From a virus (taxonomy: Duplodnaviria; Heunggongvirae; Uroviricota; Caudoviricetes), in the IMG/VR virus record IMGVR_UViG_3300033070_001565: a stretch of 64,000 nucleotides of DNA; one strand, written 5' to 3'. The notes under the pieces were generated by a model. It had not been told where the DNA came from and searched no databases. It worked only from the letters and a program-made list of their open reading frames with translations. Position 1 is the stretch's first letter; the number at the start of each line of letters is the position of its first letter. Shown here in pieces: positions 32,598 to 58,951 of this stretch. The position numbers and the translations under genes were made by a program.

Positions 32598-33139
32598 AAC
32601 TTGCTCCTCATCGGTACTGTTTTATTCTGCTTCTTTGGCATTACCGTCGTCTTTGCGGCGGGTTGCTTAATACGCTCCTGTACTGGAGCTCGCGATTTTA
32701 CGGGATCGGCTGGTGGTTGACCGGGACCGTGAGGCGTTTCAGGTACCGGTTTTTCCATGGCAGGGTGTGGCTCTTTTGTCTGAGTTGGCGTCGCCTCTGT
32801 CGAATCTTCTGCAGGGGCGTGATTCACTGCATGCGCCCTGTATGCTAGCGCGAATGCGTAGAGCGCATCATCAGCCGTTCCACCCAGCTTTTCAAATTCT
32901 GCAGTGTACTTTGCTATGAGCTTATCAATCTCTGCAGTCATCTTCTTCGCGGCATTCGAACGAGCTCGCGAGACATACTTGTTTTGCATGTCAACGTGCA
33001 GTCCTCGTACCATGTCTGACGCCGCACCGAGAAGCGCTCTGACATCGAATTCTTTGATGAGCTGAGCTCTCGCAGCTTCTCTTATGATCTGTTCGACACT
33101 CGGTTCGAGTTTGTGCATGTATTTATGTATATGACACAA
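32594..33139 (-). CDS. hypothetical protein
   Basis: Product of 181 aa with a 4-nt overlap with the downstream minus-strand gene. Confidence 0.4.
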   Translation of the reverse strand: MCHIHKYMHKLEPSVEQIIREAARAQLIKEFDVRALLGAASDMVRGLHVDMQNKYVSRARSNAAKKMTAEIDKLIAKYTAEFEKLGGTADDALYAFALAYRAHAVNHAPAEDSTEATPTQTKEPHPAMEKPVPETPHGPGQPPADPVKSRAPVQERIKQPAAKTTVMPKKQNKTVPMRSKL

Positions 33140-33922
33140 CCTGTGCTAGGTGGGTATAAAAGTGATTCAGCGTCAGCAACTGGTTCTGGCGGTCTATATA
33201 CGAGCGCGACAGAGCTAGCTCCGCTTGCAAGCTCGATTGATGGAGCAGAAATCGATCTCCGCAAGTGGGACTCTCCCGTAGAGAGACAGTTGAGGACGAG
33301 CTCTTGCACTGCGAATGCAACAGTTGCAGATCTCGAGCATCTCAGAATTGCGGCAGGAAAGTCGCACGTTGATCTCTCGAGACTCTTTCTCTATTACAAT
33401 GCTCGAGCGCAGCATCAGGCCACGTCGATTGACGATGGAACGTACATCTCGCTCGCATTTGACACACTGAGAACTCTTGGAACCTGTAGAGAGGCAACGT
33501 GGGCATTCGATCAGAGCAGAGTGAATGTGAGACCCTCATGGGACTCGTACAGAGAGGCCTACACGCACAAGATCTCTGAATTCTACAGAATTCAGGACAC
33601 AGACTCTGAGAAATTCAGACTCATTGATGAGTCACTTCGCCGGGGCCATCCGATTGTATTCGGGTGCACAGTCGATGAGGTCTTCATCAAGGGCACTGGG
33701 TCATCCGGTATTGTCGCTCCTCCCGCAAAGGTCAGAGTGAACACAGGAGGGCACGCAATGCTCATTGTTGGTAAGCTTAGATCCGGATGCTACATTGTCA
33801 AGAACTCATGGGGGACTGACTGGGGTGACGAGGGATACTGCTACATGCCTCAGGCATACCTATCAGAGGAGAATGCACATGATTTTTGGGTTTCGACAAT
33901 CGGATGGGAAAATGCTTCGTAA
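33113..33922 (+). CDS. papain-like (C1 family) cysteine peptidase
   Basis: Cys candidate in RTSSCTANATVADLEHL. The His/Asn region GGHAMLIVGKL...IVKNSWGTDWGDEGYCYM matches the papain signature. Confidence 0.65.
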   Translation: MHVFMYMTQPVLGGYKSDSASATGSGGLYTSATELAPLASSIDGAEIDLRKWDSPVERQLRTSSCTANATVADLEHLRIAAGKSHVDLSRLFLYYNARAQHQATSIDDGTYISLAFDTLRTLGTCREATWAFDQSRVNVRPSWDSYREAYTHKISEFYRIQDTDSEKFRLIDESLRRGHPIVFGCTVDEVFIKGTGSSGIVAPPAKVRVNTGGHAMLIVGKLRSGCYIVKNSWGTDWGDEGYCYMPQAYLSEENAHDFWVSTIGWENAS

Positions 33923-37211: not shown

Positions 37212-38129
37212 ATGAATATCCGATCAAATCTGATTGCGGCCATTCTCGCTATCTCGTCTCTCATGACAGCTGGCTGCGATACAGACGATGTTCCTGCCTC
37301 ACATGTTGGCAGGAAGTTTGCGCGTACTGGTGCAGCTGCACTGTACCTTGGCGATACTGGCTTCGTAGGAGGCATTCTTCCTCCTGGAACCTATTACACG
37401 GGTCTGTACGATGAGATTCGTCTCGTGGAATGCGGTCAGCAGACGAAGAAAGAGACAATGCAAGCCCTCACAAAGGATGGGGTGCAGTTCAACATTGATC
37501 TCTATATCTCATTTGGGATTAAGTGCGATGATCCTAAAACTGTCGCAAAGCTCTTCTCGACTGTTGGACCTGCGCCCACTCAAGCTGGAAATCCTTCGAA
37601 GTACATTATGGGCAGTCAGATGTACGATATCTTCTTGAAGCCATCGCTTTCTGAAGCCGTACGCTCTGCTGTGTCTCCCTACATTGCAAATGCGATCAAT
37701 GCCTCACGCGAGGAGATCTTCAAGTCAATCCGCGATCAGTTCACACTTTCTCTCAAAACTCGTGGAGATGAATTCGTAACCGTACACCAGATCTCGATGT
37801 CGAATCTCGATTTTCCAGATGCAATGGACACTGCGAATACAGATCGTGCCGTTCAAGATGTTCTGAAAGACAAAGCCGTTGCAGAACGTGCGAGGGTCGA
37901 GGCAGAGATTGAGACGACCGTCATGAGGAAGAAGCTCTCTGCATCAAAGGGCGAAGCCATTGCAGCTGAGATTGACGCTGTTGGTGCTGCCCTCTCACGT
38001 CACCCTGAGTACACAAACTACATGCTCTACCAATCTCTACCTGATGTCTACATCAAAGCAGCAGAAAAGGGGAACATGGTGATCGCCGCTCCAAATCCGT
38101 ATACCATTACACCGAAGGTGAAGTTATGA
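37212..38129 (+). CDS. SPFH/band-7-like lipoprotein
   Basis: LMTAGC lipobox and an Ala/Glu-rich coiled-coil tail KAVAERARVEAEIE. Confidence 0.45.
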   Translation: MNIRSNLIAAILAISSLMTAGCDTDDVPASHVGRKFARTGAAALYLGDTGFVGGILPPGTYYTGLYDEIRLVECGQQTKKETMQALTKDGVQFNIDLYISFGIKCDDPKTVAKLFSTVGPAPTQAGNPSKYIMGSQMYDIFLKPSLSEAVRSAVSPYIANAINASREEIFKSIRDQFTLSLKTRGDEFVTVHQISMSNLDFPDAMDTANTDRAVQDVLKDKAVAERARVEAEIETTVMRKKLSASKGEAIAAEIDAVGAALSRHPEYTNYMLYQSLPDVYIKAAEKGNMVIAAPNPYTITPKVKL

Positions 38130-38470
38130 TCCGCGTCGTCGAAATAATCGTTTTCCTGTCAATCGCTTATTTCGGCGTTGGCGGAATGAGAGCGTTTTTC
38201 GCATATCTCTCATCGAGAACTAGCAAGAAGCAGAGTGCATACAACGAGTGCGCTGCGGCTCTCTCTTCAAAAGATCCAATGGAAATCTGTTCAGTTGCAA
38301 CACGAAATGCTGAGATCGTGAATTCTCAAACACTCTCACACATGTATGCAGAAGCAGCTCGATTGTCAGATAATCTTGAGAGAGAATCTCTTTATGAGAG
38401 AGCTCGCCAAGTTCACTTGCAGATTGATAGCAAATTCGAAACCCGAAAGAAAGAGATTCTTCATCAATGA
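38126..38470 (+). CDS. small membrane protein
   Basis: N-terminal TM segment VEIIVFLSIAYFGVGG with an ATGA overlap. Confidence 0.4.
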   Translation: MIRVVEIIVFLSIAYFGVGGMRAFFAYLSSRTSKKQSAYNECAAALSSKDPMEICSVATRNAEIVNSQTLSHMYAEAARLSDNLERESLYERARQVHLQIDSKFETRKKEILHQ

Positions 38471-39840
38471 GTGATCTGAAAAATTTGTACTCGTCCCTGC
38501 GCTCGAAGCTTGCTACGATCAATCGTTCAAAACTGTTTAGTAGTGCTCAGCAAGTGGGAGACATTTTCAATTCCGTTTCGGATTTCAGAGATAGCCCTGG
38601 ATTCCTTACGGGCGGGCAGGCAGCATTCAGGCTGATTGCGTTTGCCGATCAGATGCTGCAGCCTGACGATGCAGACGAGTTCTTCAAGAATGAATTCAAA
38701 GGAAAGACCTGGGTACAGATCTACTCTAATGACGTTCAGTCTCTGATCGCAAAAATGCTTGCAAAACACGTTGTCGAGCAGCATACGACAAAATGGACTT
38801 GGCAAATGGTTGACATTGCTCAAGTCAATGGGATCACATTCGGCTGGCTCCGTGAACAATCTTTCGCAAGCGGGAATGAGAAGTATCAGATGCTTCACGT
38901 TCTGCACGACGAAGTGCAACAAGCGAAAGACATCGTCAAGTCAATGGTGTGGAAGGCCGCTGGCTGCGATAACATAATCGCGTACAAGCTGAATGTACCA
39001 ACGAGCGAGTACGATGACGGCGATCAGATGAACGTCAGAAGGGATGATGAATATGAGTGTCACGAGAGTCTCCGTGCAACTCGTTGTGCAGCAAGGATCA
39101 AGAAATACATCTCGAATGGTAAGACTCGTTCGATCATGTTTTACGGTCCTCCGGGTACTGGCAAATCGACCCTCATCAGAACAATCGTAGCGAAGCTCAA
39201 GCTCAGAACTCTCAGAATCAACGTCGAACACATTAGAAATACAGAGACAATTCGTCAGCTCTGCGAGCTCTTCATGCCAGATGCCATCATCTTTGATGAT
39301 ATCGACAGAACAAACACGAGCGCAAGCTTGCTTGCACTCCTTGAGCAGCTGAGACATATCGTGAAGGTAATGCTCACATCTGCGAACTGGACATCCGAGT
39401 TTGATTGTGCCACCATCCGCCCTGGTCGAATTGACGAAATCGTACCAGTGATCAGGCTTGATAAGATTGCTCTGATGAAAATCTTGGGTGAGGAGAACAT
39501 CGATCTTTACTCGAGAGTGAGACGGTGGCCCATGGCTTACATCCAAGAAGCCTGTCTCCGGAGGAAGATCGAATCTGCAAAAGCGTTCGAACGTTCAATG
39601 AGCGAACTTGCACAGAGATGTGCTCATGATACCGAAATCTTTGAAGAAAAAGATCCCATTGGCCTAGGTACGAATCCTGCACGCAGGAAGCTCGCAAAGA
39701 AGCGCGCAAAAGAAAAGAAGCTCGTCGCTAGCGCTCCAAAAAATGGAACTTTCACGAGTGAACCACCAGGAAGAATTGCAAGACGCGGGGCTGCAATGCG
39801 TAGACTAGAGCGTATCAATCGGCGCCGCCTCTTACGATAA
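38467..39840 (+). CDS. AAA+ ATPase
   Basis: Walker A motif FYGPPGTGKSTL and Walker B motif IIFDDIDR. Confidence 0.75.
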   Translation: MSDLKNLYSSLRSKLATINRSKLFSSAQQVGDIFNSVSDFRDSPGFLTGGQAAFRLIAFADQMLQPDDADEFFKNEFKGKTWVQIYSNDVQSLIAKMLAKHVVEQHTTKWTWQMVDIAQVNGITFGWLREQSFASGNEKYQMLHVLHDEVQQAKDIVKSMVWKAAGCDNIIAYKLNVPTSEYDDGDQMNVRRDDEYECHESLRATRCAARIKKYISNGKTRSIMFYGPPGTGKSTLIRTIVAKLKLRTLRINVEHIRNTETIRQLCELFMPDAIIFDDIDRTNTSASLLALLEQLRHIVKVMLTSANWTSEFDCATIRPGRIDEIVPVIRLDKIALMKILGEENIDLYSRVRRWPMAYIQEACLRRKIESAKAFERSMSELAQRCAHDTEIFEEKDPIGLGTNPARRKLAKKRAKEKKLVASAPKNGTFTSEPPGRIARRGAAMRRLERINRRRLLR

Positions 39841-39881: not shown

Positions 39882-40793
39882 ATGGGCCTAGGTCTTGTAT
39901 GTCACCATGTCACTCTAGTGCGCGGTAAGCCTGTTAATTCGCTGTCTCCTCGTGCATTGCGAGTTTGTGACTTGCGAAGCGGCAAGCTTACAACAAACCA
40001 GATTCTTGCTGTCTGGCACGAGAATATCTCGTCTCACCGCGGCCTGCCAGCCAAGCTCTCTGCTTGCGGTGCTTCCACGTATCGCATTTCATCATCTCTG
40101 CTCCCGCTGTGGGATCTTGTTGACGATTCTGTGAAATACGATGCATCTGTCTCGGCTGCGCTAGCGCAAATTGGCTCAGAACTGGCTGGCATCCGCTGCG
40201 TCATGCATCCTGGCCAGTTCGTCTCGCTTTCATCTCAAGATCCCCGTGTGCAAGCATCGTCTCTTGGCGATCTCGCAATGCACGCGTACATTCTTGACTG
40301 TATGGGTTTTCCACGGTCTCAGCACGCTGCGATCAATATCCACGGTGGCTCGAAAGCTGGTCTCTTCGACACTATCGATGCTATCAACCGGCTGCCCGCT
40401 TCCATCAAGTCTCGCATTACTCTCGAGAACGACGAGCTCTGCTTCGCTACCGAACATCTCTTGTTTGCTCATTCCGAGACTGGCTGCCCCATCGTTTTCG
40501 ATTCTCACCACCACTCTCTCAATCCTGGCCGGCTCTCCACGCAGGATGCCTACGATGTTGCAGTATCGACTTGGCCATCTGGTATCCGCCCTCTTCAGCA
40601 CATCTCGTCATCCCGTCCCGAGTCAGTTGGCGGTACTCTGTCTCAACTCCGCGCGCACGGTGATTACATTACACACATCTACGAGTGTCAGGCGGCCGGT
40701 GTTATCTCGAACTCGATCGACCTCGAGATCGAGGCGAAAGCCAAGAATTTTGCCGTTGCCCGTGTACGTGATAATCTCTTTCCGGGAGCATAA
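39882..40793 (+). CDS. uvdE: UV damage endonuclease (UvdE family)
   Basis: LGLVCHHVTL N-terminus and VMHPGQFVSLSS...AAINIHGGS, typical of UvdE TIM-barrel nucleases. Confidence 0.65.
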   Translation: MGLGLVCHHVTLVRGKPVNSLSPRALRVCDLRSGKLTTNQILAVWHENISSHRGLPAKLSACGASTYRISSSLLPLWDLVDDSVKYDASVSAALAQIGSELAGIRCVMHPGQFVSLSSQDPRVQASSLGDLAMHAYILDCMGFPRSQHAAINIHGGSKAGLFDTIDAINRLPASIKSRITLENDELCFATEHLLFAHSETGCPIVFDSHHHSLNPGRLSTQDAYDVAVSTWPSGIRPLQHISSSRPESVGGTLSQLRAHGDYITHIYECQAAGVISNSIDLEIEAKAKNFAVARVRDNLFPGA

Positions 40794-40802: not shown

Positions 40803-42413
40803 ATGCAAGAACATGAAACAGAGCTCCCGAGCCAGAACACGGCACAGGGACCAACCCGTGTGCTCTTTGGAGACGAAGCTCGCGCAGCAGTACTCGTTGG
40901 CGTTGAGATTGCTGGCCGCGCAGTCGGCGCGACCATGGGCCCCGGTGGCCGCACAGTCATCATCGAAAATAAGGGGAAGTCACCAACCGTAACAAAGGAC
41001 GGAGTGACAGTATGTGGGTTTGTGAACCCCAGAGACCCCTTTGCGCGGCTTGGGGCTGACTTGGTGAAGGAAGCAGCGCAGAAGACGAATGAGATTGCGG
41101 GAGATGGAACGACGACGGCATCTGTCCTTGCCTCTGCACTCTGTACCCGTGCGAGGAAGCATCTCTCTGTTGGAGTAGATCCCGTTGCTCTGAGAACAGG
41201 ATACGAGAAGGCTGCTCAAATCGCTCTCGAATATGTTGAGAAGCTAGCTCGACCCGTACAGACGAATGAGGATCTTGCACACGTTGCGAGGATCTCTGCG
41301 AATGGTGATAAGTTCGTCGGAGATCTCGTTGCACGTGCTCTTGCAAGGGTTGGAGCTCACGGAATCGTCACTGTAGAAGAATCACGTGGGGTACAGACAG
41401 AGCTCGAGGTTGTTGCGGGTACCCGGATTGATAGAGGGTATGCATCGCCGTATTTTGTGACATCTGGATCCGATCGTACGGCGAGACTTGAGCAGCCATT
41501 CGTCTTTCTCACAGACAGAAAGATCACGTCTTTCAAGGAGATTATGACAATTCTCGAGCACGTGAATAACTCGAGACGCTCCCTTCTCATTGTCGCAGAT
41601 GATTACGATTCTGATGTTTTGCAGGCTCTCGTTCTCAACAAAACACGTGGGGGATTGAAGGTATGCGCGATTAAGGCCCCCGCGGCTGGAGTGATCAGAG
41701 CCCAGCTTCTCGAGGATCTTGCGGTGCTTACTGGAGCTACAGTACTCATGGGGTCTGATAGCTGGGAGAGTCTAAAGCCCGATCACCTGGGTCAGTGCGA
41801 AACAGTCGTTGTCGATGCAAAGAAAACGACATTCATAAGAGGAAAGGGTACTCCAGAAGCGATTGCAGGAAGAGTTGCCGATCTCACTCTCAGAGTGAAT
41901 AATCCTGTTCTTACAGACATGGAGAGGAACTTTGTGAGAGGCAGACTTGCAGGATTGACTGCGGGAATTGGAGTTATCAAAGTCGGAGGGTACACTGATG
42001 TTGAGATCGGTGAACTCAAGCATCGCATTGAGGATGCTCTCAATGCAGCTCTCGGTGCTGCTGCTCAGGGAGTTGTTCCTGGAGGTGGAAGAGTACTCCA
42101 GCTCGCTTCAGGGGTCGTAAGTGCAGCGCGCAGACTGAACGATAACGAGGATGAGGCACTCGGAATGGCACAGTTTGCAGATGCTCTCCTCGATCCTGCA
42201 CGCAAGATTCTTGAAAATGCCGGGATGAAGACGATCGTATTTGACACTGAAGATGAGTGGTCGACTTACGATATCTCAGCAAAGAAAGCCGTGAATGCCT
42301 ACACTGCAGGTCTTCTCGATTCTGCGCGGGTTACTCTGGCTGCAATTGCAAATGCAACATCGGTTGCAAAGGCATTCGTATCTCTCGATGTTGCAATCAT
42401 CTCAGAGACATAA
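40803..42413 (+). CDS. groL: chaperonin GroEL (Cpn60)
   Basis: ATMGPGGRTVII, TKDGVTV and AGDGTTTASVLA motifs. Full length is 536 aa and the GGM tail is absent. Confidence 0.9.
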   Translation: MQEHETELPSQNTAQGPTRVLFGDEARAAVLVGVEIAGRAVGATMGPGGRTVIIENKGKSPTVTKDGVTVCGFVNPRDPFARLGADLVKEAAQKTNEIAGDGTTTASVLASALCTRARKHLSVGVDPVALRTGYEKAAQIALEYVEKLARPVQTNEDLAHVARISANGDKFVGDLVARALARVGAHGIVTVEESRGVQTELEVVAGTRIDRGYASPYFVTSGSDRTARLEQPFVFLTDRKITSFKEIMTILEHVNNSRRSLLIVADDYDSDVLQALVLNKTRGGLKVCAIKAPAAGVIRAQLLEDLAVLTGATVLMGSDSWESLKPDHLGQCETVVVDAKKTTFIRGKGTPEAIAGRVADLTLRVNNPVLTDMERNFVRGRLAGLTAGIGVIKVGGYTDVEIGELKHRIEDALNAALGAAAQGVVPGGGRVLQLASGVVSAARRLNDNEDEALGMAQFADALLDPARKILENAGMKTIVFDTEDEWSTYDISAKKAVNAYTAGLLDSARVTLAAIANATSVAKAFVSLDVAIISET

Positions 42414-42662
42414 TGATCTCACCTGGCTCTCTCGTAAGCTCGACACTGCGTGATGGTCATGGTGGATTTGGTATGGGACCTGTTTTCAAGTGCGGAATCG
42501 TTTACTGCATGCGGCCTTCTCCTCGGTCTGTACTTGAGCAGATGTACTGTTATGTCATCACACACAACAACATATACTGGTTGCCAATGACACCGGGAGA
42601 GCTTCACGCTATTGTGTTAAAAGCATTGAAAATTGTGCACGTTTTGATAAGAATGTGGTTAC

Positions 42663-44225
42663 ATGGCACGCGATTGGACTGCATTCTTTCCACATCCCAC
42701 TCCTCGCCCGGAACAGATCAAGACGCTAGACGCAATTGCAGATGCCTATGAGGCTGGTCACACGCATTTTATTGCAGCGCTGCCGACAGGAACAGGCAAG
42801 TCTGCAATTGCGCTTGCCTTTGCTCGGTGGTTCGACTCCCGTACAGCGGGTGGTGCTCACATTCTCACATCCCAGAGAATCTTGCAGGATCAGTATGCAA
42901 AAGAATTTACCGGAGCTGTCTCTGACATGAGATCGTCCGGAAATTTTACTTGCAATGGAAAACCCGATCACACGTGCGGTCAAGTTTCTCGCTTGAGGCA
43001 GTCGCTCCCTAAGGTTGGCTGGGTGAAGGGAATCTCTTGCAAAGTTTGTCCCTATCAGGTCAAAAAAGAGGAGTACATCAACAATCCGATTGGCTGCACA
43101 AATTACTCGTTCTTCCTCTCAGAAAGAGTCTATGCCGGTAAGCTCCCCCTGCGCGGACTCATGATCTGCGATGAGGCTCACAATGTCGAGGATGAGGTTC
43201 GTCGTTGGGCAACAGTGAGTATTAACAGGAAGTTCGCCGTTGGAAAGCTAAAACTTGACTGGCCCACCGAAGCAGATCTCCCTGCGTGGATTCTCGATGT
43301 GTACCGGCCGGCAGTCATGAAGTACTACGAGAAGCTTGTTCTCAAGGTCAAGAAAACTGGTGAAGGACCTCACCAGGCAAACATGCCCTCTCTCGTAGCG
43401 GAACTCGATTTCATGGACAAGCATCGGTGTCAGCTGAACCGAATGGATCTCGTCGATGTATCTTATGTGTACACGTACGGATTCGATGAGGCTTCTGCGA
43501 TTCCTCTCGATGTCACTGTCGAGATTAACGAGAATCTTTGGAAGGGTACTTCGTTCGTTCTCTTGATGACAGCGACAGCCCTAGATCGACGTCTGTTCAT
43601 CCAATCAACTGCGGTACCTGATACCACACCATATTTTGAGCTGCCCTCTCCATTCGAGGCCTGGAGGTACGGAATCACATATACGGCAACGGCAAGGATG
43701 TCCGGTGGTGGGATCAAGCTTCACGGAGACAAGATCAAACGCGCAATCAAGGAGATTCTGCGTCTCCACCCGAACGATAAGGGAATTATCCACGCAAACA
43801 GCTACGAGATCACTCGAGTGATCGAAGAGCTCAGGGATCCGAGGTTGCTCATTCAAAAGACGGGAGCAGATCGAGAGGGAATGCTCGAGAGACACAAGAT
43901 GAGCTCTCAGCCAACAGTGCTCGTATCTCCCGGTATGACAGAGGGAGTTGATCTCAGGGGAGACATGGGAAGGTTTCAGGTGATTGCAAAGATCCCTTAC
44001 CCGTACTTTGGAGATCCCGTTGTATCTGCTCACGTAAAATCAGACCGTGAGTGGTATGCATGGCAGACAATTATGACGCTTGTTCAGGCGGTTGGCCGCT
44101 GCGTGAGGAACAAGGAAGACTGGGCAAAAACGTACATTCTCGATCAGTGCTTTGTCGATCTTCTCAATCAACACCCGAAATTCTTTCCTGAATACTTCGA
44201 ACATCTGGAAGTGATCAGCTTGTAA
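42663..44225 (+). CDS. SF2 DEAH-box helicase (DinG/Rad3-like)
   Basis: Walker A motif LPTGTGKSAIALA and Walker B motif LMICDEAHNVED. Confidence 0.7.
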   Translation: MARDWTAFFPHPTPRPEQIKTLDAIADAYEAGHTHFIAALPTGTGKSAIALAFARWFDSRTAGGAHILTSQRILQDQYAKEFTGAVSDMRSSGNFTCNGKPDHTCGQVSRLRQSLPKVGWVKGISCKVCPYQVKKEEYINNPIGCTNYSFFLSERVYAGKLPLRGLMICDEAHNVEDEVRRWATVSINRKFAVGKLKLDWPTEADLPAWILDVYRPAVMKYYEKLVLKVKKTGEGPHQANMPSLVAELDFMDKHRCQLNRMDLVDVSYVYTYGFDEASAIPLDVTVEINENLWKGTSFVLLMTATALDRRLFIQSTAVPDTTPYFELPSPFEAWRYGITYTATARMSGGGIKLHGDKIKRAIKEILRLHPNDKGIIHANSYEITRVIEELRDPRLLIQKTGADREGMLERHKMSSQPTVLVSPGMTEGVDLRGDMGRFQVIAKIPYPYFGDPVVSAHVKSDREWYAWQTIMTLVQAVGRCVRNKEDWAKTYILDQCFVDLLNQHPKFFPEYFEHLEVISL

Positions 44226-45681: not shown

Positions 45682-47412
45682 ATGAGAGCGCTTCGTGAGT
45701 ATATTCGTCTTCATATTCAAGATATCCTTGTGGAGGGACGACTTGAAGATGCAAAGAAGAAGTACGCAGATCGTGTTGACGATCAGATATTTCAACTGAT
45801 TGTTGCGAATGATCCATCTGGAAATCACAAGTATCTCGATTGGGCATGCAGAGAGATTGTCGCAGGAGCGAAACCAGATGATGTCATCCCAACGTTTAAC
45901 GAATGGGAAAGAGTCGGAAAAAATCTGCCTCAAAAAGACATCTATAAGTTCTCAGCAAAACAAGCAGAGGATGCTCTCAAGGATTACGATGCAAAGCAAG
46001 CTGGTAAGAGAAAACAGAAATATGGGAACATTTCAGGTGCCACACCGATTGGAGAGACTGAGAGATATCTTGTCTACAGAATTACATCGCATGAGGCATC
46101 ACAAACGCTTGGATCTGGTACGAAGTGGTGTATCACAATGAGTACCGATCGATACTGGAACATGTATACTGAAGAGAAGGGTGGAAAGTTTCACTTCTTC
46201 ATACCAAAGAGTTCATCTAACGAAAAGCTTGCATGTCTGACTTACAGAAATGGTTCTCAAGAAGTTTATGCCGAAGATGATTCGATTGTAGATCTTGCGC
46301 TGACGCCTCAGCAAGAGTGTCGTATTGCGTGGACTGATGTTGACAATAGCGTCAGAAAACTTTTTCTGTCTCAAGATATCGAGAAATACGATAGTAATAC
46401 TCTGAGATGGATTCTCAGCGGAGATCATCTAAAAGATCAGCAAATCGTCGACGAACTCATCAAGGCTCTCTACGATGACAGTCTTGATCTCAACGATGCG
46501 AAAAATATTGTTGACGCTCTCTCGAAGTCACAGGGCAACATTCAACGTTTGCGAGAATTGCTGAGAAATGAACGTATCAATACATCACGTATGATGGCAC
46601 TCTGTTCGCTGATTATCAAGCATCTCGGTGATGATCTGCTTGAAGACGTTGCACTCCATGATGAACTATCTCGTGGAGCAAGATTCGCATTTTCGCATGT
46701 TTACGAGAAACTTGCTAGAAAAGCAGACCAGAATAACGATGAGCATCTCAAACGAGCTCTTATCTCGATGCTCGATAAGCCAGGAATGAACTCATCTGCA
46801 ATCGTTCAAATTTCGTTGTTGCTTCCAGCAGAGACTCTTCTCAAAATTGCTAGCGATCCATCCGCCGAAGTGTTCTCTCTTATCGCAGCGTCGAAATACT
46901 ATCCAAAACAAGTCGTTAACAATCCTGCATTCAAAAAAATAGTTGAGGCCGACCGTGTAGACCTCTGGCACACGATATCACAGCGAGAATTGATCCGCCA
47001 AAACGTAATGCTCAACGAGGACACGTCAATGCTTCTCATCGAGAATAGCAATGAACCTGTTTGGTTTGATGAAATAATCTACACAGATAGAACTGTAACT
47101 GCAACTCTCGAACGGTGGCCAGAGGTGCTCCGTTATGCGACTAATGATGCAATCGAAAGATTGAAAAAATCAAATATTTCTTGGAATACGTGGAAATACG
47201 TCATTGAAAACTCTCAAAGCTTTCAAAATCAATTCAAGAATGCATCTGTCCTCCTTAAAAAGGGTCTCGTATCACAATCTGACATCATGCAGTGGATGCA
47301 TTCTATTCCTGTGAGAAATGTACAGAACATGCTACTTGCATGGCACAAGTACGGGATTAACGACGCTGCTATGAAATCACTAGCGCAGCAATATGCTGAG
47401 TCTGCTGACTAA
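45682..47412 (+). CDS. large paralogue 1 (LREYIRLxIxxILxEGRLEDAK leader)
   Basis: Product of 576 aa. Shares MRALREYIRLHIQDILVEGRLEDAKKKY and KDYDAKQAGKRKQKY with the next gene. Confidence 0.55.
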   Translation: MRALREYIRLHIQDILVEGRLEDAKKKYADRVDDQIFQLIVANDPSGNHKYLDWACREIVAGAKPDDVIPTFNEWERVGKNLPQKDIYKFSAKQAEDALKDYDAKQAGKRKQKYGNISGATPIGETERYLVYRITSHEASQTLGSGTKWCITMSTDRYWNMYTEEKGGKFHFFIPKSSSNEKLACLTYRNGSQEVYAEDDSIVDLALTPQQECRIAWTDVDNSVRKLFLSQDIEKYDSNTLRWILSGDHLKDQQIVDELIKALYDDSLDLNDAKNIVDALSKSQGNIQRLRELLRNERINTSRMMALCSLIIKHLGDDLLEDVALHDELSRGARFAFSHVYEKLARKADQNNDEHLKRALISMLDKPGMNSSAIVQISLLLPAETLLKIASDPSAEVFSLIAASKYYPKQVVNNPAFKKIVEADRVDLWHTISQRELIRQNVMLNEDTSMLLIENSNEPVWFDEIIYTDRTVTATLERWPEVLRYATNDAIERLKKSNISWNTWKYVIENSQSFQNQFKNASVLLKKGLVSQSDIMQWMHSIPVRNVQNMLLAWHKYGINDAAMKSLAQQYAESAD

Positions 47413-49148: not shown

Positions 49149-49769
49149 CAACTTACCAGCTTGTTGCAGCGTCTGCTTGTGTGCAGCTTGAAAACTCTGA
49201 AGCGCTTCTTTATCTCCTGGCATGCTATACGAGTAGTTTAGAGAGTCGCTTCCCTGCCCACCGTAGAGGCGAGAATCATCATTGGGATCCTTTGTCTTGG
49301 GAGCCTGCATGTTATCAAGAGCTTTCTTTGGAGTGTTGTCCTGAAACCTCTTCTGCCAGTGAGACTTTGCATCTCCTGTCATTGACGCTCTGTCAGAGAT
49401 CAGAGTTCCATTTGGAGCTAGAGCGAATGCAAGTGCATACATTCCTCCGATCTCGTTCGTTGTCTTTGCGATCTTGGTAACCTCCCAAGCACCATTCGAT
49501 GGACCGTCTCCGGCAGACTTTGCAAGCGTTATTTCGATTGCTCCCCGCATGCACTCTAGAGCACAGTCTTCAATAGCTTCTGCAATATCTGCTTTTGACT
49601 GAATTGCCCGTTGGATGCCCTGAAGAAGCACCTTCGGATCATACAGAGCGCAGATTCTCTGATTTCCCCCGTTCTGAAATGCAACATAGGCGGCGAGACC
49701 CTCGCCACCCTTGATAGCTTCTGTCAGAACGATTGTTCTGACGAACTTTGCCAGATTCGTAAGTTTCAC
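49044..49769 (-). CDS. diverged ninth member of the 8-paralogue family (reverse strand, GTG start)
   Basis: KFVRTIVLTEAIKG leader-like N-terminus plus GMYALAFALA...SDRASMTGDAKSHWQKRF...KKALDNMQAPKTKDPNDDS. Confidence 0.45.
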   Translation of the reverse strand: MKLTNLAKFVRTIVLTEAIKGGEGLAAYVAFQNGGNQRICALYDPKVLLQGIQRAIQSKADIAEAIEDCALECMRGAIEITLAKSAGDGPSNGAWEVTKIAKTTNEIGGMYALAFALAPNGTLISDRASMTGDAKSHWQKRFQDNTPKKALDNMQAPKTKDPNDDSRLYGGQGSDSLNYSYSMPGDKEALQSFQAAHKQTLQQAGKLLAKSGWGGGNPIGALNAKLAQRAEDAFWRRKMQH

Positions 49770-50695
49770 ATCATAAATAACTTACCCGGTACCCTTGTGA
49801 GGATCGTTGTATCATCTGCGTAAGATACGAACTCACGGATTGCGTCATTACCCAGTGCATCTGCAAGTGCAGTAAGATCGAAGTCGCAGATCTCATCGAT
49901 CCAATCTCCGATGATGTAAAGCTTGTTCTGACCGCGAAGCACTCCAAACAGGATGGGATCTTTCTTTGCTTGTTTCTGTGCATTCGTGAGTTCGAATGAC
50001 TTTCCATCGGGATCAAAATGTAGCACACAGTAGTTATCGAAGAGTCCGAGTTCGTCTGCTCTCTGCTTCTTCGCAAGAATAGCATCAGGAATCATCCGCG
50101 TGTAATTCTTGACCCAATCGAGTCTAAGAGCACCGATCTTTCTCTGCGAGTATCGTTTCGTAACAGGAGAGAGCTTGTACAGTCGTATCATATCGTCTTC
50201 CGTGACATATTTCGTGATTCCGACTGAAATCATCTGCGACTCATATTTGTATGCCCTTAGCGCATCCGTGAGTCTCTCGTACAAAGCTTTCTGGCCGGAA
50301 GACTTTGCAGCCACCAGAGCACGCTCATATCCATCTGCTCGAGCAGTGATGATCTCAAGTTCTTTTACAGAAGCTTTTACGTTTGAAAAATACTCTTGTA
50401 TCGTAAACTTTCTTCGAAAAATGCGATCGTAAGTGAACCCTAGAAACTCCGCAATTCGCATGAAGATACGTCTGAAGAATGGAAGCCGCCGTTCTCTCGG
50501 CGAAAGCATTACTCTTCCGTCAGAAGAGACATCGAAATCTGCTGCACCTCCCATTGACATGTCGTCATCGAATTCTTCTCCTGGAAAGCGAACGAGAGTG
50601 GCGCCCTTCCTCTTCTTCTTGTCTTCTGCAAACTTTGGAAGACTTCTGTCTGTGACGAAGTTTTCAAGAATGCTGAGTCGATTTCCATCAAGCAT
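49766..50695 (-). CDS. hypothetical protein (RNA-ligase neighbour)
   Basis: Product of 309 aa with an internal Met start. The 8-nt overlap with the ligase suggests translational coupling. Confidence 0.45.
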   Translation of the reverse strand: MLDGNRLSILENFVTDRSLPKFAEDKKKRKGATLVRFPGEEFDDDMSMGGAADFDVSSDGRVMLSPRERRLPFFRRIFMRIAEFLGFTYDRIFRRKFTIQEYFSNVKASVKELEIITARADGYERALVAAKSSGQKALYERLTDALRAYKYESQMISVGITKYVTEDDMIRLYKLSPVTKRYSQRKIGALRLDWVKNYTRMIPDAILAKKQRADELGLFDNYCVLHFDPDGKSFELTNAQKQAKKDPILFGVLRGQNKLYIIGDWIDEICDFDLTALADALGNDAIREFVSYADDTTILTRVPGKLFMM

Positions 50696-51728
50696 ATTCA
50701 ACACCGGCTTCCACTTGTTCGAGATACCAAACTTTTGCGTATTTCTGCGCAGTCGAGATTGCGACTTTCTGATTGCAGCCCGATGCCTCGATCTCTGCTT
50801 GCGTTTCACGCTCGAGATCAGCCGCCAGCCACTTCATGAATGCACCGATATGTTTCATTGAGATTGAACCATCCGACGAGGCGGCTGCAGCTCCCTGCCT
50901 CAAGCGAGAAATCGTACACACGAGCTTTGCGTACTCATTTGCACCCTCTGTTTTTGTGGCATCGGCTTGAGCTGGTTTCGTATGAGCAACAACCTGATGC
51001 TCTTCACCTTTTGCCTTGAAGGCATAGGATTCGAAGTGCTCGTAATCGCTGAGAGTCGGATTGCACGGGTAGAACACGAGACCCTCTCCAATCCCAGAGA
51101 TCCCGTATGTCTCTTTCACCCAGGGATCGCACGCTTCGACGAGCTTCACTTGTTCATTGATCCAATCAATCTCTGATTGGAGATCTTCTGCTGGCGAGTC
51201 CCAACTGATATCGACCTCGCTTCCACCATCGTACCAGGGAAGAACATGAAGCTGCGGGCAGACTGCCTTGTACTGTGAGTGCTTCAGATAGAGCTCAATC
51301 TCACGTGGATCTTTGATGAAGATCTCGTGATTCCCCCTGTATAGTCTCATTGCAAAGACGGCAAAGATCTTGTGAGGAAGCTGAGATACTGCGACTCCAC
51401 GTTGAATCTTTGGACCTGCCCACTCGCCAAACACGATCAGCTTCTCATCACTGTGTAGAGAGTTCGATATCTCATTGAACGTGGCACGATTCTGCTCAAC
51501 CCACCCAGCAAAGCCCATGTTATCCACCGCAGGAGTGAGAATCGAATCTCGAGACTGCACCACAGGAGGCTTTCCATTCTCGAGCTGGATTGCTGCATTC
51601 GATCCATGCAACTTCACTTTTGCCATGTACCGCACGCAGACGGGAGGGAGCCACTCGGGATTCTTTTTCAAATCCCGCCTGAGCGTATGAAAGTTTCTGA
51701 TGGATGCCCAACGTACGTGATTTGCCAT
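50688..51728 (-). CDS. RNA ligase (Rnl2-like nucleotidyltransferase)
   Basis: Motif I AKVKLHGSN (KxHGxN), motif III IVFGEWAG, motif IV GEGLVFYP and motif V AFKAKG. Confidence 0.6.
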   Translation of the reverse strand: MANHVRWASIRNFHTLRRDLKKNPEWLPPVCVRYMAKVKLHGSNAAIQLENGKPPVVQSRDSILTPAVDNMGFAGWVEQNRATFNEISNSLHSDEKLIVFGEWAGPKIQRGVAVSQLPHKIFAVFAMRLYRGNHEIFIKDPREIELYLKHSQYKAVCPQLHVLPWYDGGSEVDISWDSPAEDLQSEIDWINEQVKLVEACDPWVKETYGISGIGEGLVFYPCNPTLSDYEHFESYAFKAKGEEHQVVAHTKPAQADATKTEGANEYAKLVCTISRLRQGAAAASSDGSISMKHIGAFMKWLAADLERETQAEIEASGCNQKVAISTAQKYAKVWYLEQVEAGVEYA

Positions 51729-51776
51729 TTGATTCAAATCTATATTTGTTGTTGCGTGTTTTCAGCTAATTGATTT

Positions 51777-51977
51777 ATGAAGATCGAAAGGATACCAGTG
51801 AAGGGACCCCTGTCAAAGGGAACGCTCGCTGGTGTGAGAGCAGAGGCTGCCGGCAAGCCGTACGACAGATTCGGTGTTGTTCTCAGTGTAGAGAACGGCA
51901 GACTGTTTTTGATAACTGCAGCAGGACCAACGTGGTGGCCCTGGCGTATGTCCTACGTGGCTCTTGGCATGTCATAG
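51777..51977 (+). CDS. small ORF, possibly related to the microgene family
   Basis: ATG ORF of 66 aa. IPVKGPL...VVLSVENGRLFLI...WWPW resembles the family. Confidence 0.2.
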   Translation: MKIERIPVKGPLSKGTLAGVRAEAAGKPYDRFGVVLSVENGRLFLITAAGPTWWPWRMSYVALGMS

Positions 51978-52144
51978 TGCCACCGCGCGTACCTTCTGAT
52001 TGAACTAGCAGCCATCCATTTAGAAAATTCGTTGAAATGGGCGTCAATCCTACGAGTACGTTCGCAGACTGCAATTGCAATATACAAGTAATACGAATCG
52101 TCAAGACTGTCTGCAAAAAGAGTTCCCGGTGTTACGGCTTCCAC
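51953..52144 (-). CDS. microgene array member (MET-PG...WKP family), most downstream copy
   Basis: GTG-EAVTPGTLF. The junction GTGGAAGCCGTAA is shared with the upstream copy. Confidence 0.4.
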   Translation of the reverse strand: MEAVTPGTLFADSLDDSYYLYIAIAVCERTRRIDAHFNEFSKWMAASSIRRYARWHYDMPRAT

Positions 52145-52317
52145 AATACCTCGCGATTCATGAGATCAGCTCTTTCAAAGAACAATCCCATGTGAACGTA
52201 TCCATCGTTATCAATGATATACGTCCCTCTTATACAGCATGACACGATGATTCTTATCTTATCTCGATCGATTTGAGCTCTGTACACGCAGCCTGGAATG
52301 AGATCAGCTCGTTTCAC
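52132..52317 (-). CDS. microgene array member
   Basis: MKRADLIPGCVY...IRIIVSC...VLWKP*. Confidence 0.5.
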   Translation of the reverse strand: MKRADLIPGCVYRAQIDRDKIRIIVSCCIRGTYIIDNDGYVHMGLFFERADLMNREVLWKP

Positions 52318-52321
52318 AGGA

Positions 52322-52519
52322 TTAAGTACATTTCCACAGAGTTACTCGTTTATAGGCGCCGTTAGAGTCTATCGAATCTGGCGTACGGACGATCTTGCCA
52401 GCGATAAACACGTAACGAGTTCCGATTAGAACAGATATTGAACTGAGCATTTCCTCGTAAAAGAAATCAGCTCTCAGAGATCCTGATACATCACACTCTC
52501 GCGAATCTGATCGACTCAT
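52322..52519 (-). CDS. microgene array member
   Basis: ...VSGSL...ISVLIG...TLWKCT*. Confidence 0.4.
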   Translation of the reverse strand: MSRSDSRECDVSGSLRADFFYEEMLSSISVLIGTRYVFIAGKIVRTPDSIDSNGAYKRVTLWKCT

Positions 52520-52742
52520 GAGTGTATCTCAAGTTTCTTTTTGCAATTTTTGATCGTGCTGTGAGAGTTTTGCCATTCACACCTCTACCTGGGTAGTACA
52601 AAACGATCTGCACTGTTATTTGCGGGTCAACGGTTGGCCATACTTGAACTCTCAGATCTCCTACGCCTGGAGCAATATCAATCGCCTCCTCTGTGTGGGT
52701 TTTGAGAATTTGTTTCATTTCCTGAATTGCGATTTTTCTCAT
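52491..52742 (-). CDS. microgene array member (diverged)
   Basis: IAPGVGDLRVQVW...ITVQIVLY. Confidence 0.3.
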   Translation of the reverse strand: MRKIAIQEMKQILKTHTEEAIDIAPGVGDLRVQVWPTVDPQITVQIVLYYPGRGVNGKTLTARSKIAKRNLRYTHESIRFARV

Positions 52743-52972
52743 GCCGGCTCGATGTAATAGCAGTGTGGAGTCCTACGACACACGAGATACATTTTTGTTT
52801 CGCATACGATTCCCGTTGAGACGAGATGTATCAATTCTTCATTGTGAATTGAAAGTGTCACGCCCATGTAATACCTGATGAATCTGTCCCCTGGGCGCAG
52901 CGACTTTTCCTTGCTTACGAGAAGCGATCCATTTGGAATCTTGTTTGCAGAGAGTTCGTCAATGATGAGCAT
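52739..52972 (-). CDS. microgene array member
   Basis: KIPNGSLLV...VTLSIHN, with an ATGA junction. Confidence 0.4.
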   Translation of the reverse strand: MLIIDELSANKIPNGSLLVSKEKSLRPGDRFIRYYMGVTLSIHNEELIHLVSTGIVCETKMYLVCRRTPHCYYIEPA

Positions 52973-53225
52973 TCTTTTTTGGGTTCCAGATGAGCTTGTG
53001 TTGTGCTACATAGTAGATTCTTACTGGCAAAAAAACATAATTTTCGATTGCGTGCTGAGACAGGGTACGAATTTCACCCTCTTTGAAATTTACGCCAATA
53101 ATCGCAGAAACACGTAGTGATCTAACATGTTTGCAAACAGAGAGCTGGCCTGGCTGCGGTGTCGGAGTCCATTTCGGACGATCCTGTCTTACAGCACGAT
53201 CAAGATCTTCTACAATATCTCTCAT
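52959..53225 (-). CDS. microgene array member
   Basis: PQPGQLSV...LRVSAIIGV...LIWNP plus an extension. Confidence 0.4.
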   Translation of the reverse strand: MRDIVEDLDRAVRQDRPKWTPTPQPGQLSVCKHVRSLRVSAIIGVNFKEGEIRTLSQHAIENYVFLPVRIYYVAQHKLIWNPKKNAHH

Positions 53226-53452
53226 ATCTTTGGAGCAAAGATAACACGTGGCAAGCAGAATTGAGTTTGAAGCATGCTACCAATCTTCACTTCTGTGCTT
53301 GCGAGCTCAACGAGTCCTCCTTGCACAGTGATCTCGAGTCTCACGGAGTTGGCTCCTTGCTTGTAACCAGGCAGAAACTGGAGAAGCGACCCTGGCAGTG
53401 ACATGTCATGCATCTGAGTCAGAAATGACAATTTGGTATTCATCATAGCCAC
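53222..53452 (-). CDS. microgene array member
   Basis: MSLPGSLLQF...VRLEITVQ, with an ATGA junction. Confidence 0.4.
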   Translation of the reverse strand: MAMMNTKLSFLTQMHDMSLPGSLLQFLPGYKQGANSVRLEITVQGGLVELASTEVKIGSMLQTQFCLPRVIFAPKI

Positions 53453-53545
53453 CTGATGTTAGCTGTTTTACTGATGCAATGTCGTCATCAAGATCTACGT
53501 GCCAGCCTACGAGAATGTAAACATTTGCTACACCGTTATCGTGCG

Positions 53546-53770
53546 TTAGCCAACCGATGGTACCCGGTAGCTTAACTTGCATGTGTACAATACATTGGCA
53601 TCGCGCGAGATAATTCTATTTCTCAGTCCGTCTGAAGTCAGAGTAATAGTGTGCGCTTGTACACACTCTACAATACTAGAACTGATGATAATGTGGAGCA
53701 GACGATTAGTACTGGCCGGATGATATGCGTAACGTCTTATATTTCCTGGATGCATGTAGCTATTTTCCAT
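53546..53770 (-). CDS. microgene array member
   Basis: MENSYMHPGNIRRYAY...LLHIIISSS. Confidence 0.45.
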   Translation of the reverse strand: MENSYMHPGNIRRYAYHPASTNRLLHIIISSSIVECVQAHTITLTSDGLRNRIISRDANVLYTCKLSYRVPSVG

Positions 53771-53993
53771 TTGTCAGTTCCTCGAGCGTTGTGATACCTT
53801 TCTTCCACATTGAATATGATATTGAAAATCCGACAACGCCATGAACGTTCTGCAGAACAGTGACCCAGAAATCTTTCTTTTTGTGACGTTTTATAGCTAT
53901 GCACAGCATTGGCATACAAGAGTTGTTGATCTTGTTATAGCGCATAGCAAGTCTTAGCTGTCCAGTTACAGGCCCACGATATTTTGTTTGCAT
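53760..53993 (-). CDS. microgene array member
   Basis: GPVTGQLRLAM...MLCIAI...SMWKKG. Confidence 0.35.
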   Translation of the reverse strand: MQTKYRGPVTGQLRLAMRYNKINNSCMPMLCIAIKRHKKKDFWVTVLQNVHGVVGFSISYSMWKKGITTLEELTNGK

Positions 53994-54172
53994 ATCAGAG
54001 CTTTATGTTCGTACCAGGGAATCGAGAGATTTACATTTTTTGCAACACCTTCGGCTGACAGCATGTAAGCATCGAAAGATGTCTGCGATTTCTGTTTGCA
54101 CGATATGATAATGAACGGATACTTCGTAACGATCGCATATAGGCAGCCAGACTCAATTTTCATGGGTGTCAT
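53966..54172 (-). CDS. microgene array member
   Basis: MKIESGCLYAIVTKYPFIIISC...IPWYE. Confidence 0.4.
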   Translation of the reverse strand: MTPMKIESGCLYAIVTKYPFIIISCKQKSQTSFDAYMLSAEGVAKNVNLSIPWYEHKALICKQNIVGL

Positions 54173-54587
54173 GATTGAGTCTCTCCTCGACGAGGCGTAG
54201 ATGCTCAGATGGGAATGTCACATGAACTACTTGCTTGAAATCATCGTGAACAAGCTTCCACCGCCAGGCTTTGCTCTTTCGTGTTCCAAATCCTTGCATC
54301 CAATCTTTGACACGATCGGAATCAGAGTCTCTCTTCACAAGCTTGAGAAATTTTTGTGCTGATCGTGAGTCGGAGAATACGATCCAGATCCTGTCTCGGC
54401 ACGCCAGCGGCACTCGATGCTTGTGACTCACTCCGCAGATTCCTCCGCAGCTTCCCTGACAAGAATTACGGGTCGCACATCCCAGTTCGTTTAGTAGAAC
54501 AATGAGCTTCGATATTTTCTTATCGACACTCACGATCTGGCCACCGAGAGCGATCTTGTCTTTTCTGTGACGCTTCAATTGCACCAT
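54153..54587 (-). CDS. array-embedded larger Cys-rich ORF (144 aa)
   Basis: LGGQIVSV...CATRNSCQGSCGGIC...WRWKL. The N-terminal junction is ATGGTGCAATTGA. Confidence 0.35.
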   Translation of the reverse strand: MVQLKRHRKDKIALGGQIVSVDKKISKLIVLLNELGCATRNSCQGSCGGICGVSHKHRVPLACRDRIWIVFSDSRSAQKFLKLVKRDSDSDRVKDWMQGFGTRKSKAWRWKLVHDDFKQVVHVTFPSEHLRLVEERLNHDTHEN

Positions 54588-54757
54588 ACTTCTTCGAATC
54601 CAGTGAAATGGTGAGAAAATTCGATAAATTTCGGACCAGCCATAATTCGAAGTTGTTTTCCGTATGCTATGCTGATCACGATTAGAATTTGACGTTTGTG
54701 ACCGTTGAGGCCGGCTGTCACTTCAATGTTTCCCGGGGCCGGCGAGATCTTATTCAC
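54575..54757 (-). CDS. microgene array member
   Basis: MNKISPAPGNIEV...ILIVISIA...EEVWCN*. Confidence 0.5.
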   Translation of the reverse strand: MNKISPAPGNIEVTAGLNGHKRQILIVISIAYGKQLRIMAGPKFIEFSHHFTGFEEVWCN

Positions 54758-54930
54758 GATTTTACTTCTATGTAATGTTGCTTACGGCACCACAAGTCAC
54801 TGCTAAATCCAGCAGACGAGAGTCCCTGAAATGTGTACAAATACTGATTTATTGAGAAATTCAAATGTTTCTCAGCTAGCGCGATTCTTACGCACGTAAA
54901 CGTTTCTCCTTCAACATTCCTGACATAGAA

Positions 54931-55167
54931 TCATAATTTCATATTACACCGAGTTGAGCCTGGTTGCACCAACGTACGGAGTGATCGGAATTCTCGTGTT
55001 TCCCACCAAGTGTTGTTGCTAAATTCGGTGGAACCAATCCATGAGATTGTGTGATCGGGAGAGTACTCTGACATTCGACTTTTTTTATGACTTGTTATCG
55101 TTGAAAGAGTAATGAAATACCTATTGCCGATTTCAACAAGGCACCCTGGTACAGGATCACAGTTCAT
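54931..55167 (-). CDS. microgene array member
   Basis: MNCDPVPGCLVEI...FITLSTI...ISWIGS plus an extension. ATGA overlap with the upstream copy. Confidence 0.45.
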   Translation of the reverse strand: MNCDPVPGCLVEIGNRYFITLSTITSHKKSRMSEYSPDHTISWIGSTEFSNNTWWETREFRSLRTLVQPGSTRCNMKL

Positions 55168-55349
55168 TGTGGACTCCACAGAACATCACGTGCAGAGTTA
55201 CGGTACCTGTCATCTAGTCTCGTGCAAGTACCATTTGAAAATATTACAAGGTTGAGATGATTTTTTCTATGAATCGTAATATACGTTTGAGTCGTCCACC
55301 GACTTTCGTAGTGTATGATCGAACCTGGCAGAATATTCGTGTCAGACAT
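55164..55349 (-). CDS. microgene array member
   Basis: MSDTNILPGSIIHY...YITIH...VLWSPQ*. Confidence 0.5.
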   Translation of the reverse strand: MSDTNILPGSIIHYESRWTTQTYITIHRKNHLNLVIFSNGTCTRLDDRYRNSARDVLWSPQ

Positions 55350-55352
55350 ATC

Positions 55353-55553
55353 TTATGTGATACTATATTTTTTCACAGTGTCGTGAAATAGCGTCGTACG
55401 TCGAATCGTACCTTCAGAATGAAGAAAGATAAATTTTTTTCTTTTGTAGCCAGTAACATCTTCGCAACTCAATACCACTGAGAGTTTAAGTTCGTTTCCG
55501 GAAAATTCATTGTATAGAGATCCAATCGTCCCTAGAGGAATAAACGTGACCAT
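55353..55553 (-). CDS. microgene array member
   Basis: MVTFIPLGTIGSLY...LKLSVVLSC. Confidence 0.4.
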   Translation of the reverse strand: MVTFIPLGTIGSLYNEFSGNELKLSVVLSCEDVTGYKRKKFIFLHSEGTIRRTTLFHDTVKKYSIT

Positions 55554-55741
55554 ATCAATTCCTTTCTCATGCTCAGATGTGGAAAATCTGAGAACGAGTT
55601 ATCAATCCCGTGTGGTGTAATGTATTTTGATTGTGAATCTGTTGATGATAGAACGATTGCAAGAATTTCGAACGATTCATCTCCGCTGATCGCGCCAGCA
55701 AAGCAGATCGAATCTTTCATCAGTGCGCCTGGACGATTCAT
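55532..55741 (-). CDS. microgene array member
   Basis: MNRPGALM...FEILAIVLSS...ELIWSR. Confidence 0.45.
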   Translation of the reverse strand: MNRPGALMKDSICFAGAISGDESFEILAIVLSSTDSQSKYITPHGIDNSFSDFPHLSMRKELIWSRLFL

Positions 55742-56410: not shown

Positions 56411-56450
56411 TTTTGAATTGTACGCTTTCGTGACAGTGATTACACGTCAG

Positions 56451-58843: not shown

Positions 58844-58951
58844 CGATGAGCAACTCAGTTACAATTCTGTGAACTGTTTTCGATGTGAGTGTGTTTTCGG
58901 TCCGCATTGAGCGAGATCGAAATATAGAAAAGATTGCCAGTGTAATTCATA

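Follow-up and report, generated by a model that had tools for sequence, protein, structure and literature searches.

A divergent, tail-less GroEL-type chaperonin without an adjacent groES gene, from the genome of a probable jumbo phage

Viral GroEL proteins occur commonly in marine viromes. A clade of them on contigs without GroES has been described by Marine et al. 2017 (ISME J, PMC5649160), who propose for it either co-chaperonin independence or the use of host GroES. Jumbo-phage chaperonins without co-chaperonins have already been studied structurally (PMC7185714; PMC9598537), and other phages, such as Flavobacterium phage vB_FspM_immuto and Cellulophaga phages, carry GroES-GroEL operons. 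Here we describe a GroEL/Cpn60 gene in a 64,000-nucleotide stretch of DNA recorded in IMG/VR as IMGVR_UViG_3300033070_001565, the whole of which we call the window. The gene, the N-terminal extension of its product and the small open reading frame (ORF) that follows it lie as follows, with lengths of products in amino acids (aa):

40803..42413, + strand: GroEL/Cpn60, a divergent group I chaperonin of 536 aa without a C-terminal tail (ATG start; family matches)
40803..40856, + strand: N-terminal extension MQEHETELPSQNTAQGPT, 17 residues before the equivalent of E. coli K4 (conserved ATG; coding substitutions)
42413..42751, + strand: orphan small ORF of 112 aa, uncalled by gene callers (its ATG overlaps the GroEL stop, TAATG)

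A preliminary description of this DNA had proposed a full-length Cpn60 of 536 aa with an intact ATP-binding signature, and this is borne out: the coordinates are exact and the family matches lie far beyond chance. The protein scores 218.6 bits with the Pfam family Cpn60_TCP1 (cutoff 34.3) and 427 bits with PHROG 5725, 'chaperonin groEL'; it passes the NCBIfam models NF000592 (484 bits; cutoff 397) and NF009487 (478 bits; cutoff 352); and GroELs of the PDB align to its residues 19-533 with E-values from 1e-105 to 1e-119. With E. coli GroEL, to which it is 38.5% identical, the alignment runs end to end through all three domains (residues 20-529 against 5-517, E 1e-105), and the two share ATP-site and catalytic residues, apical groove and GroES contacts. 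They differ in that the window protein has no GGM tail, carries the 17-residue N-extension, has no groES gene upstream and is altered at several positions discussed below. Residues were read from an alignment of the window GroEL with 126 other chaperonins and are given in E. coli numbering. The ATP/Mg and catalytic sites (T30, G32, P33, K51, D52, G53, D87-T91, S151, D398, G414-416, D495) match E. coli at every residue, and the GDGTTT motif is kept.

The gene itself is maintained. Compared with the gene for P0002, a metagenomic protein 87% identical to the window GroEL (locus L003), differences at codon positions 1, 2 and 3 number 66, 39 and 272, and groEL is thus under strong purifying selection. 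Its GC content at third codon positions (GC3, 0.46) is typical of the genome in which it lies. Because of this native GC3 and the strong purifying selection, we read groEL as an old resident gene, and as neither a recent capture from a host nor a pseudogene. Nor is the protein host-identical, since no cellular GroEL is more than 43% identical to it.

In a database of 5.8 billion proteins, the only close relatives were P0001 (98% identity), P0002 (87%) and P0005 (50%), with all others at or below 44%. A neighbour-joining tree of 127 sequences (525 columns, 200 bootstraps) places the window GroEL and these three metagenomic proteins in a clade with 100% support, which joins 53 further sequences; the whole group has 50% support and the 53 have 91%. 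These sister sequences share an architecture of an N-terminal extension and a C-terminus that ends in ...TFLSLDAVI and a short acidic stub, and the contigs that carry members of the group reach 324 kb. The window clade is probably part of a wider uncultivated group of GroELs that lack the tail and are extended at the N-terminus. Searches for close relatives in IMG/VR and among deposited phages gave no match above 41% identity, either for the window GroEL or for the sister clade, and no member of the clade or of its sister group is present there above 47% identity.

The preliminary description had proposed, as a check, a phylogeny against phage EL-type and bacterial GroELs; in the tree the window GroEL groups with the stub-tailed GroELs, apart from EL, OBP and AR9, and is not of the EL type. 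EL gp146, OBP gp246 and AR9 resemble it in being jumbo-phage-encoded, in lacking a co-chaperonin gene and in having short C-termini without GGM, but they are only 21-23% identical to it, fall outside its clade and have diverged grooves, where that of the window GroEL is kept. On the scale of the equivalog model TIGR02348 the window GroEL reaches 475 bits, against 158 for EL gp146, 636 for the sister-clade protein P0021 and 713 for the GroEL of the Flavobacterium phage. The Vibrio and Flavobacterium phage GroELs are 36-37% identical to the window protein; those encoded in GroES-GroEL operons share with it the canonical length, intact ATP site and groove, but have a clear adjoining Cpn10 (4e-21 in the Flavobacterium phage, whose GroEL is 37% identical). 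The likeness to the GroES-less clade of Marine et al. 2017, which we compare by description, is that of a GroEL on a (here putatively) viral contig without any GroES; the window lineage differs in coming from other samples and in lying on jumbo-sized contigs. The alignments in that study (PMC5649160) were trimmed to residues 8-514, and terminal architecture is not discussed there.

Some apparent relatives were set aside. P0003, P0004 and P0006 (712-749 aa, about 500 bits) had seemed to be closer or fused relatives of the window GroEL; they are GroELs of the usual GGM-tailed kind in which segments are duplicated internally, and rank close falsely because repeated matches inflate their bit scores (assembly or gene-call chimeras). 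The top 'phage' GroEL matches, to small Enterococcus, Listeria and Staphylococcus records and to Salmonella contigs, look like host GroEL contamination. Six phage-labelled records with a host-type GroEL stand in the top tblastn lists (PQ520251.1, OR846590.1, OR848861.1, OR844996.1, AGRM01000005.1 and AFYI01000007.1); some are 3-6 kb long and some are Salmonella contigs. Host contamination or mislabelling seems likely, and such records inflate counts of 'phage GroEL'.

The absence of a GGM tail, already remarked in the preliminary description, is confirmed: the protein ends in ...SLDVAIISET, 2 residues past E. coli position 524, compared with a median of 18.5 residues in tailed GroELs (GGM- or otherwise-tailed, presumed cellular) and of 7 in the phage GroELs of the aligned set, among which short or absent tails are usual. 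At the other end, the polar N-extension evolves faster than the remainder of the protein; its median length is 10 residues in the sister clade and 3 in tailed GroELs. These 17 residues are genuinely translated: the ATG is conserved in L003, the sole alternative start, GTG (V20), is lost there (ATT), and the substitutions, at 7, 4 and 16 for codon positions 1, 2 and 3 against the 87% relative, follow a coding pattern. The N- and C-termini of GroEL both protrude at the floor of the folding chamber, and it is a matter of speculation that the N-extension compensates for the lost tail. C-terminal tails have been given roles in restraining apical dynamics, in tuning GroES engagement and in encapsulation (bioRxiv 10.64898/2026.09.01.748644; PMC11978752).

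The statement that no GroES gene adjoins groEL also stands, and extends to the 64-kb window and the flanks of related loci. When all 732 stop-to-stop segments of the window (45 aa or longer) were searched by phmmer with GroES from E. coli and from a phage, no match fell below E=0.29. Cpn10 was absent at E<0.033 when Pfam was run on 76 greedy-called small ORFs of the window, and no co-chaperonin family was among the best 25 PHROG matches of these ORFs (to E=3e-8), which excludes a strong match only. The precomputed Pfam annotations likewise showed no Cpn10 among genes called on the source contigs between about -7 kb and +46 kb, and no cpn10 lay near any of 7 related loci. As positive controls, the Flavobacterium phage GroES beside its GroEL was detected at 4e-21, and the probes retrieved the cpn10 beside GroEL at two IMG/VR loci. 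A recognisable cpn10 is thus absent within about 71 kb of a genome of about 256 kb.

How, then, might this chaperonin act? Its apical groove is kept (Y199, S201, Y203, F204, L237, L259 and V263, with the conservative changes L234M and V264L), as are the further GroES-contact residues E238, N265 and R268. The groove is conserved in the 53 sister-clade sequences too, and has diverged in EL, OBP and AR9, at Y203, L259, V263, V264, E238 and R268; EL has been found experimentally not to bind GroES (PMC7185714). With moderate confidence, we favour a functional, ATP-driven GroEL-type chaperonin of a jumbo phage of about 256 kb, belonging to an old, virus-associated, tail-less lineage and probably using host GroES. 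In this lineage the disordered C-terminal tail would have disappeared entirely, and the polar N-terminal extension would have been acquired. The protein would assemble into heptameric rings and bind non-native proteins on the apical groove, and its ATP cycling may help to fold phage proteins during infection. Host GroES would be recruited as the lid, unlike in the lidless EL, OBP and AR9; such a lid seems the most likely because the GroES-docking residues are retained (L234M, L237, E238, V264L, N265, R268). Among bacteria, a stand-alone groEL gene whose GroES partner is encoded at another locus is a common arrangement (PMC5406781).

A rival reading is of a chaperonin that works without a lid, as do all three biochemically studied phage chaperonins (PMC9598537; PMC7185714), by ATP-dependent binding and release of phage proteins (endolysin, capsid), possibly as a single ring. 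In its favour, cpn10 is lacking from the window and from the surroundings of the 7 related loci; the tail that tunes GroES engagement in E. coli is missing; and residues at the inter-ring interface have changed in the window clade (E461K and S463I). In E. coli, E461K is known as a mutation under which the interface between the rings is rearranged. However, EL, OBP and AR9 are related to the window GroEL at family level only, the groove and GroES contacts that have diverged in them are conserved here, and the gap between 475 and 158 bits on the GroEL equivalog model separates it further from EL. We regard lidless action as a serious rival, though the less likely of the two, and the suggestion in the preliminary description that phage chaperonins often work without a co-chaperonin is not favoured for this one, which keeps a groove no longer present in EL, OBP and AR9.

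Several observations weigh against the host-GroES reading that we favour, or at least temper it. The 475 bits of the window GroEL do not reach the TIGR02348 equivalog cutoff of 582.1 bits. Compared with E. coli GroEL, it carries F44G at a position near-invariant in tailed GroELs and K327A where K327 is found in 62/62 of them, and its GFGDRRK loop is remodelled (D283V, R284I, K286A), D283 and R284 being near-invariant in tailed GroELs. Taken with the changes at the inter-ring interface (E461K, S463I and A109V), the loss of K327 and F44 and the altered loop suggest changed ring-ring coupling and allostery. A tail-less ring may, by analogy with E. coli, in which the tails tune GroES engagement, behave differently from a tailed one. 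Conservation of the groove is no proof of GroES use, as the groove binds substrates too; the search for cpn10 covered about 71 kb of the roughly 256-kb genome; and the 64-kb window contains no capsid, portal or terminase genes.

A lid encoded by the phage itself, and unrecognisable by sequence, is a further possibility, and the orphan ORF directly after groEL is one candidate. It occupies what appears to be a 249-nucleotide intergenic gap 3' of groEL. Its counterpart in the 87% relative, of 65 aa, overlaps the GroEL stop by ATGA; it is the sole frame open in both genomes, and 36/65 residues are identical. The codon-position differences (27/15/38 at positions 1, 2 and 3) and 20 synonymous codon changes mark it, on this comparison, as a real, fast-evolving gene. 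The stop/start overlap suggests translational coupling to groEL. In a HMMER scan of 1.84 billion representatives the relative's counterpart was the one homologue found: the ORF is a lineage-restricted orphan.

T4 gp31 is an example of a lid that no longer resembles GroES in sequence. In both lineages the conserved, coding ORF overlaps the stop codon of groEL; it, or else a cpn10/gp31-like gene in the other 185 kb or so of the genome, might supply such a lid. The order GroEL>GroES is documented in viruses (PMC5649160), and it was for this reason that the orphan ORF was tried as a minimal GroES, with all sequence tests negative. It had zero matches in Pfam, PHROG and NCBIfam; hhalign against a GroES alignment gave a probability of 1.8%; and a PDB profile search found neither GroES nor gp31. 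A single-sequence AlphaFold2 (AF2) model of it was of low confidence (predicted local distance difference test, pLDDT, 57) and without a fold match. Against the partner reading, too, the 65 aa of the counterpart are too short for a Cpn10 fold, and the sister clade lacks the orphan ORF and has a different, helical ORF upstream instead. The coupling to GroEL is thus suggestive, a co-chaperonin role for the orphan protein is without support, and we think it improbable that either form of this alternative holds.

The conserved helical ORF of the sister clade, of 86-97 aa, always lies directly 5' of GroEL (L012:9669-9962, L014:9686-9955, L021:9679-9966, L022:9707-9967); it has 30 homologues and no Pfam match, and is absent from the window. 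This ORF was also considered as a cryptic GroES and rejected: its AF2 model (pLDDT 71.5) is a helix-helix-beta-hairpin and not a Cpn10, with no significant PDB match. The model gave weak winged-helix-like hints. In the sister clade a small membrane-like ORF is found 3' of GroEL.

That the gene is phage-encoded, as the preliminary description assumed, stands as regards gene content and affinities to jumbo phages, which make a jumbo phage the very probable source of this DNA; it does so by inference, since the virion genes that would settle it are absent from the window. P0002 lies on a 255.8-kb contig (ERZ869929 NODE_3_length_255832; L003) with a gene order identical to that of the window. The genome encodes a DnaE-type Pol III alpha with an adjoining HNH gene, and DnaB, ribonucleotide reductase, ThyX and dUTPase just upstream of the window. 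Within the window are genes for ThyA, dCMP deaminase, two DNA methyltransferases, an Fe-superoxide dismutase, a NUDIX protein, an RNA ligase and many ORFans, and phage replication and nucleotide-metabolism families account for many of its PHROG matches. From 51770 to 64000, after a strand switch at about 49 kb, some 45 packed genes of 57-144 aa lie mostly on the - strand with almost no database matches, and the contigs available for extension to the right stop inside this block; similar small-gene blocks are found downstream of GroEL in the sister-clade loci L012 and L014. Among the genes of sister-clade loci are Tad2/Tad4 anti-defence genes and one for a sigma factor, and there is a weak match to T4 Gp23.

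It might be argued that the DNA comes instead from a cellular genome, a megaplasmid or another mobile element, with GroEL a divergent bacterial paralogue; bacterial stand-alone GroEL paralogues with non-GGM tails do exist (PMC11978752). Consistent with this, the window lacks virion genes, matches none of 50,697 deposited phage records at the nucleotide level and has a GroEL without close kin in IMG/VR. Set against these points are the absence from the window of tRNA, rRNA and other Rfam matches and of housekeeping genes, the packed tiny ORFs, the ORFan-rich large genes and the HNH gene beside DnaE, which are typical of phages, the PHROG replication and nucleotide families, the Tad2/Tad4 genes and weak Gp23 match of the sister loci, and a neighbouring helicase whose nearest matches are in jumbo phages. 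We judge a non-phage source to be very unlikely.

Returning to the chaperonin of a jumbo phage as we favour it, the genes around groEL are co-directional with it:

37212..38470, + strand: SPFH/Band_7 protein and a 114-aa membrane-anchored protein, at the head of a co-directional gene string
38467..39840, + strand: classical-clade AAA ATPase of 457 aa (Pfam AAA; best PDB matches AFG2, Cdc48, VAT and Rpt)
39882..40793, + strand: UvdE UV-damage endonuclease (Pfam UvdE, 152 bits), ending 9 nucleotides before the GroEL start
42663..44225, + strand: XPD/DinG-like DNA helicase (Pfam Helicase_C_2, ResIII and DEAD_2; PHROG 2488, 293 bits)

The AAA ATPase is found upstream of GroEL in L003, L014, L015 and L022 as well, UvdE has the same position in L003, L021 and L022, and the helicase in L003 and L015; the order AAA ATPase - UvdE - GroEL - helicase is common to the window, L003 and L015, with AAA and/or UvdE in L014, L021 and L022. 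A functional link between AAA protein and chaperonin is a plausible inference. The helicase is nearest to those of jumbo or huge phages of 309-735 kb; Tunturiibacter phage Tunturi_5, which has the most similar helicase, has no GroEL nearby, so that synteny with an isolated phage was not obtained. Stop and start codons overlap among the genes for the SPFH/Band_7 protein, the 114-aa protein and the AAA ATPase, which may form a membrane-associated proteostasis unit upstream of GroEL. In this stretch (37212-39840, + strand) the membrane anchor of the 114-aa protein is N-terminal and the AAA C-terminus is highly basic. A bolder proposal, to which we give very little credence, is of a phage-specific folding module without a Cpn10 lid, in which the orphan protein and/or the N-extension replaces lid and cavity floor and the AAA+ unfoldase pairs with GroEL. 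If true, this would be an unfoldase-foldase pair restricted to one clade of jumbo phages, all uncultivated.

Other features of the window are recorded here in their own right. ThyA (11876-12886, + strand) and ThyX (L005:4556-5296, about 5 kb upstream of the window) occur in one genome, which also encodes the dCMP deaminase, a dUTPase_2 protein and a protein with an Fe-superoxide dismutase C-terminal domain (13535-14245). Between 25612 and 30773 (+ strand) lie eight tandem paralogues of 204-249 aa, with 28-47% pairwise identity and E-values down to 2e-72; this array, conserved in L007 and L008, matches nothing in Pfam or PHROG and represents an orphan family that has expanded locally. A papain-like cysteine protease (Pfam Peptidase_C1) is encoded at 33113-33922 (+ strand) and kept in the 87% relative (L003); the family is characteristic of eukaryotes and of the viruses that infect them, and is an unusual find in a tailed-phage-like genome. 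At 49766-50809 (- strand) a PHROG 'transposase' match (7.4e-15) adjoins the RNA ligase gene (50688-51737), at the switch of orientation. One of the 76 small ORFs (at most 200 aa) gave a PHROG 'histidyl tRNA synthetase' match with E = 5.2e-35, and may be an aminoacyl-tRNA synthetase-like fragment or domain. A PHROG 'portal protein' match proved to be to the NUDIX ORF at 22491-23156, and covers the NUDIX motif only. Neither of the large ORFans 20373-21980 and 45682-47412 matched a phage sequence in translated searches (tblastn). An alternative genetic code was considered for the ORF-poor region of 51.7-64 kb and rejected, since no coherent long ORFs emerged on recoding TGA, TAG or TAA.

The view in the preliminary description that phage chaperonins are rare is outdated, given their abundance in viromes (PMC5649160) and the 269 deposited phage records that match GroEL, some of which are host contamination. 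The window GroEL is a deep-branching addition to the GroES-less viral GroELs already known, and not a new kind. What is mildly novel is the terminal architecture common to a sizeable uncultivated clade, a score under the equivalog threshold in a protein whose active site and groove are intact, and the conserved AAA/UvdE/helicase neighbourhood with its coupled orphan ORF. The practical value is modest: the case establishes no new principle, and comparable viral GroELs without GroES have been published.

In its degree of divergence this lineage is intermediate: it keeps the ATPase site and the GroES groove, has lost the tail, and has an N-extension at the same place in the cavity. It is thus possibly a natural tail-deletion variant, which would provide a test of the roles of the tail and of a GroEL ring running on borrowed host GroES. 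More widely, phage chaperonins bear on how viruses reshape the proteostasis of their hosts, and are natural experiments in chaperonin design.

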